Source: Escherichia coli (GTDB lineage Bacteria > Pseudomonadota > Gammaproteobacteria > Enterobacterales > Enterobacteriaceae). From it: a stretch of 64,000 nt of DNA. The position numbers and the translations under genes were made by a program. The notes beneath the pieces are model-generated. The model was not told the origin of the DNA and ran no database searches. It worked only from the letters and a program-made list of their open reading frames with translations. The stretch lies in the NCBI RefSeq assembly GCF_044324785.1, contig NZ_CP172127.1. One strand, written 5' to 3'. Shown one piece after another: positions 20,798 through 23,783 of this stretch (within the stretch, counting starts at the first letter, position 1; every line of letters begins with the position of its first letter).

Positions 20798-21250
20798 TTA
20801 TTCCTTACCCAGCAATGCCTGCAGATCCTGCTTCAAAGAAGACATTTTATTCGCGTATTTCTCTTTGTTTTCCGCATCTTCAATCAGCTGAACAATCGTT
20901 TCAGAAAGCGTTTTACCGCGACGCTGCGCAAGACCAGCCAGACGTTGCCAGACAATAAATTCCAGATCGATCGATTTTTTGCGCGTATGCTGGTGTTCCG
21001 CATTAAAATGGCGCTTCCGTCTGGCCCGAATGGTCTGCTTCATGCGATTGACCAGTTCCGGATTCATATGCTTATCAATCCAGTTATTTACCAGCACGGG
21101 TTCATTTTCCAGCGAGAGCAACACATCGACGGCTTCCTGGGCGGCACTGGCTTCTATGTAACGGGTGATTAACTCCCCTTCGCGATGCTTCTTCACCAGA
21201 TACTTCCATTTCCAACCGCTTTCAAGATTTTCAAGTTGTTGATATTTCAT
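20798..21250 (-). CDS. matP: Ter macrodomain organizer MatP
   Basis: Track ORF 150 aa [35 protein letters not shown]... Confidence 0.92.
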
Positions 21251-21435
21251 AGCGATCTCAATGTTACCGTGTAACTCTTTACAGAATATCAGCTTTTTGG
21301 GCCAGTGAAGAAAAGAATCTCCATCCTGTGAGCTTTAACGCCCATGCCAAGAGTATTGTCGGTGCTTTCTACGTGTGCTGTAGTGCCGGTTACGGTATAA
21401 TCGCGGCTTTGACAACAGACTAAAAAACATCAACT

Positions 21436-23196
21436 TTGACCATTACGAAACTTGCATGGCGTGACCTGGTTCCTGATACCGATAGCTATCAGGAAATATT
21501 TGCTCAGCCACATTTGATTGACGAAAACGATCCTTTATTCAGTGATACTCAACCGCGACTGCAATTTGCGCTGGAGCAGTTGCTGCATACGCGAGCATCC
21601 TCCTCTTTTATGCTGGCGAAGGCCCCGGAAGAGTCTGAGTATCTGAATCTTATTGCCGATGCCGCGCGTGCGCTACAAAGTGATGCAGGCCAACTGGTGG
21701 GCGGTCACTATGAGGTTTCCGGCCACACCATCCGCTTACGTCACGCAGTGAGTGCAGATGATAATTTTGCGACTTTAACGCAAGTTGTCGCTGCCGACTG
21801 GGTAGAAGCAGAGCAACTCTTTGGCTGCCTGCGCCAGTTTAATGGCGACATTACCCTGCAGCCAGGTCTGGTGCATCAGGCAAATGGCGGTATTCTCATC
21901 ATCTCTTTGCGTACACTGCTGGCGCAACCTCTGCTGTGGATGCGGCTGAAAAATATCGTTAACCGCGAGCGTTTTGACTGGGTTGCGTTTGATGAGTCGC
22001 GCCCTCTCCCCGTCTCTGTGCCTTCGATGCCATTGAAGCTGAAAGTCATTCTGGTAGGCGAACGCGAATCATTGGCTGATTTCCAGGAGATGGAACCAGA
22101 GCTTTCAGAGCAGGCTATTTATAGCGAATTTGAAGACACTCTGCAGATTGTCGATGCGGAGTCAGTAAGCCAGTGGTGTCGCTGGGTGACATTGACCGCC
22201 AGACATAATCACTTACCTGCACCAGGAGCGGATGCCTGGCCGGTACTTATCCGCGAAGCAGCCCGCTACACCGGTGAACAAGAAACACTTCCGCTTAGCC
22301 CGCAGTGGATCCTCCGCCAGTGTAAAGAGGTCGCCTCCCTGTGCGATGGCGACACCTTCTCCGGCGAGCAGCTAAACTTAATGCTGCAGCAGCGTGAATG
22401 GCGTGAAGGTTTCCTCGCTGAACGCATGCAGGATGAGATCCTTCAGGAGCAAATCCTGATTGAAACCGAAGGCGAACGCATCGGGCAAATTAACGCCCTT
22501 TCGGTCATTGAATTTCCGGGTCATCCACGCGCTTTTGGCGAACCTTCTCGCATTAGCTGCGTTGTGCATATTGGCGATGGTGAATTCACCGACATCGAAC
22601 GCAAAGCGGAGCTTGGCGGCAATATCCATGCGAAAGGGATGATGATCATGCAGGCGTTCCTGATGTCGGAACTACAGCTTGAGCAACAGATCCCCTTCTC
22701 AGCATCGCTGACATTTGAGCAGTCATACAGTGAAGTGGATGGCGATAGTGCCTCGATGGCTGAACTCTGCGCCCTGATAAGCGCCCTCGCCGATGTGCCG
22801 GTGAATCAGAGTATCGCTATCACAGGTTCAGTCGATCAGTTCGGTCGTGCCCAGCCGGTCGGTGGTTTAAATGAGAAAATCGAAGGCTTCTTTGCTATTT
22901 GCCAGCAACGTGAGTTAACCGGGAAACAAGGTGTCATTATCCCCACTGCTAACATTCGCCATTTAAGTCTTCACAGTGAACTGGTGAAAGCGGTAGAAGA
23001 AGGCAAATTCACCATCTGGGCAGTAGACGATGTGACTGACGCACTGCCGTTATTATTAAATCTGATGTGGGATGGCGAAGGCCAAACGACGCTGATGCAA
23101 ACCATCCAGGAACGTATCGCGCAAGCATCGCAACAGGAAGGACGTCACCGTTTTCCATGGCCATTACGTTGGCTGAACTGGTTTATTCCGAACTGA
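21436..23196 (+). CDS. ycbZ: Lon protease homolog (S16 peptidase domain protein)
   Basis: Track ORF 586 aa [27 protein letters not shown]...; start codon is TTG; C-terminal Lon-type proteolytic domain (DGDSAS... serine motif). Confidence 0.88.
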
Positions 23197-23264
23197 TCGG
23201 ACTTGTTCAGCGTACACGTGTTAGCTATCCTGCGTGCTTCAATAAAATAAGGCTTACAGAGAAC

Positions 23265-23783
23265 ATGGTAGATAAACGCGAATCCTATACAAAAGAAGAC
23301 CTTCTTGCCTCTGGTCGCGGTGAACTGTTTGGCGCTAAAGGCCCGCAATTGCCAGCACCGAACATGCTGATGATGGACCGTGTGGTCAAAATGACCGAAA
23401 CGGGTGGTAACTTCGACAAAGGGTATGTTGAAGCAGAACTGGATATCAATCCGGATCTGTGGTTCTTCGGATGCCACTTCATTGGCGATCCGGTTATGCC
23501 GGGATGCCTGGGCCTGGACGCAATGTGGCAGCTGGTAGGGTTCTACCTCGGCTGGCTGGGCGGCGAAGGTAAAGGCCGCGCGCTGGGCGTTGGCGAAGTG
23601 AAATTCACTGGTCAGGTACTGCCAACAGCGAAAAAAGTGACCTACCGTATTCACTTTAAACGCATTGTTAACCGTCGTCTGATTATGGGCCTGGCGGATG
23701 GCGAAGTGCTGGTTGATGGTCGTTTGATCTATACCGCCAGCGACCTGAAAGTCGGTCTGTTCCAGGATACGTCTGCCTTCTGA
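23265..23783 (+). CDS. fabA: 3-hydroxydecanoyl-ACP dehydratase/isomerase
   Basis: Track ORF 23067..23783 trimmed to ATG 23265 ([40 protein letters not shown]...), 172 aa. Confidence 0.96.

Follow-up and report, generated by a model that had tools for sequence, protein, structure and literature searches.

The window analysed here is a single stretch of 64,000 nucleotides of Escherichia coli DNA (contig NZ_CP172127.1), in which the gene ycbZ, a coding sequence (CDS) for a predicted LonC-type Lon-like protease, lies directly 5' of fabA (window 21436-23783). The 586-residue form of ycbZ is the RefSeq CDS in E. coli 042, to which the window is identical across the 450 bases compared, in K-12 MG1655 (b0955) and in a divergent Escherichia lineage. 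The initial annotation had remarked that the reading frame opens just after an in-frame TAA, with a TTG as its first possible initiation codon, that the next in-frame ATG is more than 50 codons downstream, and that the bases ahead of the TTG contain no Shine-Dalgarno (SD) sequence; it left a choice between a 586-residue product initiated weakly or by a non-canonical mechanism and a shorter protein beginning at the downstream ATG. Direct reading bears out the positions of both the TAA and the TTG, and the ATG in question proves to be codon 59, before which the only further canonical candidates in frame are TTG at codons 27 and 49; in the interval from the TAA to Trp8, the TTG of codon 1 is the sole canonical start codon. 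Our analyses indicate that this TTG is very probably the genuine start of ycbZ, that initiation there is probably SD-independent, and that the weak codon is held in place by purifying selection, likely for low synthesis of the protein. The features concerned are collected in Table 1.

Table 1. Features of ycbZ and its start region, with positions in the window and the basis of each assignment.
Feature	Position	Strand	Basis or remark
ycbZ CDS, LonC-type Lon-like protease (predicted)	21436..23196	+	586 amino acids; list of open reading frames (ORFs) and RefSeq
-10 hexamer TATAAT of the ycbZ primary promoter	21396..21401	+	direct reading, alignment
Transcription start (G) of ycbZ	21411	+	Kim et al. 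2012, mapped onto the window
ycbZ 5' leader GACAACAGACUAAAAAACAUCAACU	21411..21435	+	25 nt, A/C-rich, two G, no SD
In-frame TAA closing the ycbZ frame 5 codons before the start	21421..21423	+	direct reading
ACA 9 nt before the ycbZ start	21427..21429	+	reported by Sauert et al. 2016 to be cut by MazF when mazF is overexpressed
Conserved start context ACU-UUG-ACCA	21433..21442	+	74-species frequencies
TTG initiation codon of ycbZ	21436..21438	+	RefSeq, 74-species alignment, INRI-seq
In-frame ATG (Met59), internal codon, not the start	21610..21612	+	direct reading, alignment, model

The position of the start is apparent from a codon alignment of 74 species of Enterobacterales (one genome per species, drawn from roughly 36 genera), to which species counts refer throughout, while a separate alignment of YcbZ proteins extends down to 36% identity. 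Residues well ahead of codon 59 are kept across the order: W8 in 65 of the 74 species, L11 in 71, P13 in 73, and both Q39 and R41 in all 74. Residue 59 itself is Met in 50 species, Leu in 21, Ile in two and Ala in one, and at the locus from the divergent Escherichia lineage its codon is ATA (Ile). Codons 3, 27 and 49 are likewise not conserved, codon 3 (ATT in E. coli) specifying Ile in just 29 species. An AlphaFold2 model of YcbZ (mean predicted local distance difference test (pLDDT) 87.9, predicted template-modelling score 0.83) folds residues 1-60 into four helices, with pLDDT by block between 74 and 95, and places Met59 within a beta-strand of residues 58-62, so that a start at this codon would delete four helices of the AAA-like domain. 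Initiation at the TTG is also seen in vitro: the INRI-seq data of Hoer et al. 2022 have a retapamulin peak at the annotated ycbZ start (1018299) in five of five replicates, at 7-12 reads per million. At the other end of the gene, ribosome footprints run in vivo as far as codon 586 (Fujita et al. 2022). Residue conservation, the model and the in-vitro peak together uphold a real 586-residue product, initiated weakly or without an SD, and the 586-residue form of YcbZ is correct, which settles the annotation question in its favour.

The same INRI-seq experiment recorded one alternative site in ycbZ, an out-of-frame GTG at +106 (approximately 21542-21544; peak 20, count column 3), which has no in-vivo Ribo-RET signal. 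This GTG opens a short ORF of about 34 codons within the ORF at 21518..21646, and initiation there probably arises as an artefact of the in-vitro system.

The absence of an SD sequence was measured as the free energy (dG) of the best duplex between positions -20 to -4 and the 3' end of 16S rRNA. At ycbZ in E. coli this duplex has a dG of +0.4 kcal/mol, which amounts to no SD, as the initial annotation had judged. Among the 55 complete annotated CDS of the window, for which the median is -6.0 kcal/mol, ycbZ is one of three genes with a dG of zero or above, the sole gene with a TTG start, and the one with fewest G (two) in the 25 bases upstream. Nor is this a peculiarity of E. coli, since the mean duplex dG at the ycbZ start over the 74 species is 0.05 kcal/mol, the best is -3.3 and none is at or below -4, and a GGA-type motif occurs between -20 and -1 in only two of them.

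Conway et al. 2014 described a primary promoter upstream of a ycbZ-fabA operon, and the supplementary table of Kim et al. 2012 gives for MG1655 a ycbZ transcription start site (TSS) at 1017547, a 25-nt 5' untranslated region and a promoter string ending in GGTATAATCGCGGCTTTG. A consensus promoter scan finds no -35/-10 pair upstream of ycbZ. A TATAAT element is conserved in an upstream alignment of 28 species, being a perfect TATAAT in E. coli and TGnTATAAT (an extended -10) in most other genera, and the distance from the end of a -10-like hexamer to the start codon is 33-36 nt in 59 of the 74 species; the promoter belongs to the -10 or extended -10 class and came to light only through its conservation. 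A coordinate search of Cappable-seq supplements, which are possibly incomplete, gave no TSS for ycbZ, and no Klebsiella TSS was obtained. The E. coli leader that follows from the mapped TSS contains no ATG, GTG or TTG and is unpaired in the minimum free energy fold. Over the 74 species the leader averages 0.41 A and 0.10 G, the frequency of G being 0.22 further upstream and 0.27 in the CDS, and A is present at 0.49-0.73 at positions -9 to -17, except at -16, where A falls to 0.24 and G is the commonest base. The mean probability of being unpaired between -15 and +12 is 0.63, and in control windows taken from inside the same mRNAs it is 0.41 (p = 7e-31). With a 25-nt leader by the mapped TSS and a UUG codon, the transcript is not of the leaderless kind; its A-rich leader and low structure are those of SD-independent initiation. 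The suggestion of a non-canonical mechanism is overstated, since E. coli is already known to initiate without an SD on leaders that are A-rich and unstructured.

Several other ideas about the upstream sequence were set aside. A scanning-like rule, by which the first start codon from the 5' end is used, is at odds with the 29 of the 74 species that carry another ATG, GTG or TTG triplet in the leader; the upstream copy of a direct repeat CTTTGAC in E. coli (21407 and 21434) is not conserved; the TTGACC that overlaps the start, taken as the -35 element of an internal promoter, has no -10 element at the right spacing; and a FadR-like operator is a poor match, as judged by eye only. When 21200-21700 was searched against Rfam, no family matched at E <= 1.

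As for the start codon, 70 species have TTG, four have GTG (from the genera Providencia, Arsenophonus, Morganella and Moellerella), and none has ATG. Comparison of the start region among orthologs, proposed in the initial annotation as a test, thus gave a divided answer: there is a conserved start at the equivalent of 21436, so that its position is fixed, yet it is the same weak TTG or GTG throughout, which confirms the weakness. At 47 conserved four-fold degenerate sites of the same genes the commonest base has a mean frequency of 0.48 and a maximum of 0.80; these sites are saturated, and a T at 0.95 in the start codon is therefore under selection. The remainder of the context is also conserved, with frequencies upstream of 0.99 for A-3, 0.81 for C-2 and 0.77 for U-1, in the codon of 0.95 for U1 and 1.0 for both U2 and G3, and downstream of 0.97 for A+4, 0.84 for C+5, 0.76 for C+6 and 0.99 for A+7. 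The amino acids at codons 2 and 3 differ among species while the first base of each codon stays A; judged from the alignment, the bases flanking the start are conserved beyond coding need. Among six metagenomic orthologs of 37-49% identity, ACU-UUG-A is found in four, a GTG in one and an ATG in one. Within the species, an identical 57-nt context containing the TTG occurs in 5082 of 5425 complete E. coli genomes, and an ATG or GTG in place of the TTG was found on that background in none.

These observations can be joined to what is known of translation in E. coli, where start sites are correctly chosen without SD pairing, and where genes that have no SD are helped to initiate by A-rich sequence located within about 15 nt upstream, binding of ribosomal protein S1 to the upstream A/U-rich sequence having been suggested (Saito et al. 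2020). In a bacterium without SDs, the presence of an A at -3 is of importance (Baez 2019, as cited by Saito et al. 2020), and Hoellerer & Jeschek 2023 showed base pairing between a U at -1 and A37 of tRNAfMet. Because ycbZ possesses all of these features, and possesses them in conserved form, we propose that ribosomes are recruited by its A-rich leader and the start stabilised by its context. Transcription from the conserved (extended) -10 promoter would produce the leader of about 25 nt, which, lacking an SD, nearly free of G, A-rich at -9 to -17 and little structured, would permit 30S subunits to load independently of SD pairing; the open, A-rich sequence may favour this loading, possibly via S1. 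The start would then be fixed by its local context, A-3, U-1 (which can pair with A37 of the initiator tRNA) and A+4, which would stabilise the weak interaction between UUG and the anticodon. Purifying selection against AUG would retain the weak UUG, or GUG in some Morganellaceae. The retention of UUG in these species, with no replacement by AUG, points to selection for a low output of YcbZ, and the likeliest reason for the weak codon would be that synthesis of the protease is kept low, with a regulatory link possible, although any such reason is speculative. Initiation at the TTG in vitro, the position of the start, its conservation and the absence of an SD are demonstrated; the parts assigned to S1 and the A tract, to the bases at -3, -1 and +4, and the reason for selection, we infer.

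A number of points weigh against this interpretation and must be set beside it. The functional roles of A-3, U-1, A+4 and the A tract at ycbZ are drawn by analogy with other genes, and the same conservation could reflect the binding site of a regulator. Since the 74 species share ancestry, their counts do not represent independent events, and the one distant ortholog with an ATG (locus L087) means that AUG is not forbidden in the family. The INRI-seq construct was a T7 transcript with a fixed 30-nt leader and 153 coding nucleotides, translated in a purified system, and hence not the native mRNA. In the Ribo-RET set recorded in vivo by Meydan 2019, in the form tabulated by Hoer et al. 2022, there is no peak at the ycbZ TTG, for which low expression may be the cause. 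An N-terminal peptide of YcbZ was not found, and ycbZ is absent from the TRAINSPOTTER supplementary files; Salmonella riboproteogenomics supplements likewise gave no ycbZ match for start-site or N-terminal data. Finally, the mapped TSS comes from a single dataset and lies 10 nt past the -10 hexamer, beyond the usual distance.

The alternative that survives best, improbable though it is, regards the ACUUUGACCA block as mainly the binding site of a regulator acting in trans (protein or small RNA), with the TTG conserved as part of that site; feedback tied to the status of translation is one possibility. Positions -3 to -1, together with +4, +6 and +7, which are silent or fall in codons for variable residues, are conserved above any neutral site, the distance from promoter to start is conserved, and YcbZ is linked to translation, carrying an arrest peptide at its C-terminus, all of which would suit a regulator. 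Against it, no partner of the block is known, Rfam has no match, and no second half-site or conserved repeat is seen in the upstream alignment. The substitution of T by G that is tolerated in Morganellaceae is better suited to any weak start than to a fixed motif, and each of the conserved bases has a known, generic role in the context of initiation. A further idea is that ACU-UUG-ACCA, on a G-poor leader of fixed length, might be a dedicated sensor of the initiation machinery (for example, of the availability of IF3, S1 or initiator tRNA) or of YcbZ itself. We consider this improbable; were it true, then, with the C-terminal arrest peptide, translational stress would be coupled to the synthesis of a translation-linked protease and possibly to read-through into fabA.

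Initiation might also take another route altogether, by coupling to a small upstream ORF, on a leaderless or near-leaderless mRNA made by MazF, or at the near-cognate ATT of codon 3, each of which is very improbable. In nearly all species the start shares bases with a +1-frame TGA (as TTGA or GTGA), and a 31-codon ORF with a GTG start (21328-21423) ends at the in-frame TAA, as coupling would have it; but no start codon within the transcript opens the frame that this TGA closes, the GTG of the 31-codon ORF lies upstream of the mapped TSS, and in other species the upstream frame is open for very different lengths. A MazF cleavage 9 nt upstream of the start has been reported, Table 1 of Sauert et al. 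2016 listing 'ycbZ 9' as a member of the 'MazF regulon', cleaved at an ACA and polysome-associated after mazF overexpression; this processing is, however, seen under overexpression only, leaves a 9-nt leader and would not explain the order-wide pattern. The occurrence of Ile at codon 3 in only 29 of the 74 species counts against the ATT, and in INRI-seq initiation took place in vitro on an isolated 30-nt leader, with neither coupling, MazF nor the ATT route to assist it. The notion that the annotation is too long, and that the real start is the ATG of codon 59 with a protein of 528 residues, is scarcely credible: ATG is the commonest start codon, one or more deposited Salmonella annotations are of that length, and Ribo-RET has no peak at the TTG, but against this stand the strong conservation of residues 8-41, the replacement of Met59 by Leu, Ile or Ala in 24 of the 74 species (Ile, as ATA, in the divergent Escherichia), its location in mid-strand in a confident model, the lack of an SD ahead of it (-2.2 kcal/mol) and the INRI-seq hits in ycbZ, which are the annotated TTG and the out-of-frame GTG, codon 59 being outside the coding segment of that construct. 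The suggestion of a shorter protein is therefore refuted, and the 528-residue form in some records is wrong.

Shorter YcbZ entries do exist in public protein sets, of 528, 545 and 539 residues (P0099, P0005 and P0007). The first of these, from Salmonella, has the length expected if Met59 had been called as the start, judged by length alone, from which it would follow that gene callers disagree on the start of ycbZ.

Turning to the protein, YcbZ has the Pfam domains AAA_32 and Lon_C (the latter at E 4e-10), and its closest solved relative is MtaLonC (E 1e-57), on whose crystal structures the whole model superposes with a TM-score of 0.81. Residues S438 and K481 are invariant in the protein alignment and align with the catalytic S582 and K625 of LonC, and a Walker A motif ([AG]xxxxGK[ST]) is absent from all 25 members of the YcbZ family that were checked. 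By homology and by its model, YcbZ is thus assigned as a LonC-type Lon-like protease, with a Ser-Lys protease domain and a Walker-less AAA-like domain; the label of Lon homolog in the initial annotation named the right family and was imprecise as to type. Since no Walker A motif is present in the family and the fold matches the ATP-independent LonC, the name 'AAA family ATPase' that RefSeq gives to the product is doubtful and probably misleading. Maeda et al. 2020 reported inactivating mutations of ycbZ that arise during laboratory evolution and make cells resistant to several chemicals, erythromycin and EDTA among them. The C-terminal residues 565-586 have been recovered as an interactor of RNase E in a two-hybrid screen, and over the last two codons, Pro585-Asn586, and the stop (window 23188-23196) ribosomes stall strongly, a finding that Fujita et al. 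2022 confirmed with reporter assays, with tRNA-seq and by cryo-EM. Unusual translation signals are accordingly found at both ends of ycbZ, at the start and at the C-terminal stall.

The neighbouring fabA lies directly 3' of the gene also in five of the six metagenomic orthologs (loci L084 and L086-L089 are those listed), while the contig of the sixth stops just past the gene. A poorly translated ORF of 1.76 kb ahead of fabA could influence read-through transcription into that gene. Inside ycbZ, a perfect 9-bp hairpin (TTCCTGATA...TATCAGGAA) at 21470-21495, over codons 12-20, was flagged by a terminator scan. Most of the closer enterobacterial genera in the alignment share this palindrome, which Yersinia, Serratia and genera more distant lack. 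Judged by eye, it follows the conserved codons for Pro-Asp and Tyr-Gln; no covariation is seen, and it was set aside.

The start codon of ycbZ is already in annotations and each mechanistic element is already known, for which reason the scientific reach of these results is modest. No description of the order-wide arrangement of UUG, no SD, A-3, U-1 and A+4 was found in the literature searched, and its preservation across the order appears to be new. The gene is a clean natural example of a start with a weak codon and no SD, preserved over roughly 36 genera, in which conservation marks the bases likeliest to act (A-3, U-1, A+4 and the upstream A tract), and its leader is a convenient test case for SD-independent selection of start sites in E. 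coli.

Of the systems with which ycbZ may be compared, MtaLonC of Meiothermus taiwanensis (PDB 4fw9/4fwd) is the nearest to its product, sharing the fold, a conserved Ser-Lys dyad and the lack of Walker A in an AAA-like domain, at about 25% identity; YcbZ is shorter, at 586 residues against 732, and its activity and ATP independence are predicted only. With regard to the start, the closest likeness is to the SD-independent A-rich leaders (Saito et al. 2020; Baez et al. 2019), which similarly have no SD, A within about 15 nt, an A at -3 and low structure. The ycbZ leader differs in pairing these features with UUG rather than AUG and in the conservation of the arrangement across an order, the roles of the individual elements being carried over to ycbZ from those leaders. 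As regards the pairing of U-1 with A37 of tRNAfMet, U-1 is found in 77% and A+4 in 97% of species, so that U-UUG-A faces the anticodon loop; the published measurements, made with AUG reporters, show a small effect. By analogy, U-1 and A+4 may compensate in ycbZ for the U1-U36 mismatch of UUG, and a pairing of the +4 A with U33 has figured in older proposals.

Conserved non-AUG starts that limit or regulate their own synthesis are known in infC (AUU), pcnB (AUU), cyaA (UUG) and rpsT (UUG). Most of these genes retain an SD, and the function of their starts is experimentally proven, as in the autoregulation of IF3 and in limited expression. In ycbZ, as in these genes, a sub-optimal start is maintained over long evolutionary distance, whereas the case for ycbZ rests on conservation and its start is without an SD. 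Our approach shares with that of Belinky, Rogozin & Koonin 2017 the framework of setting start-codon switches against four-fold sites, by which those authors found selection for AUG, and compensation of GUG and UUG by stronger SDs; ycbZ runs counter to both trends, having kept its UUG with no SD.

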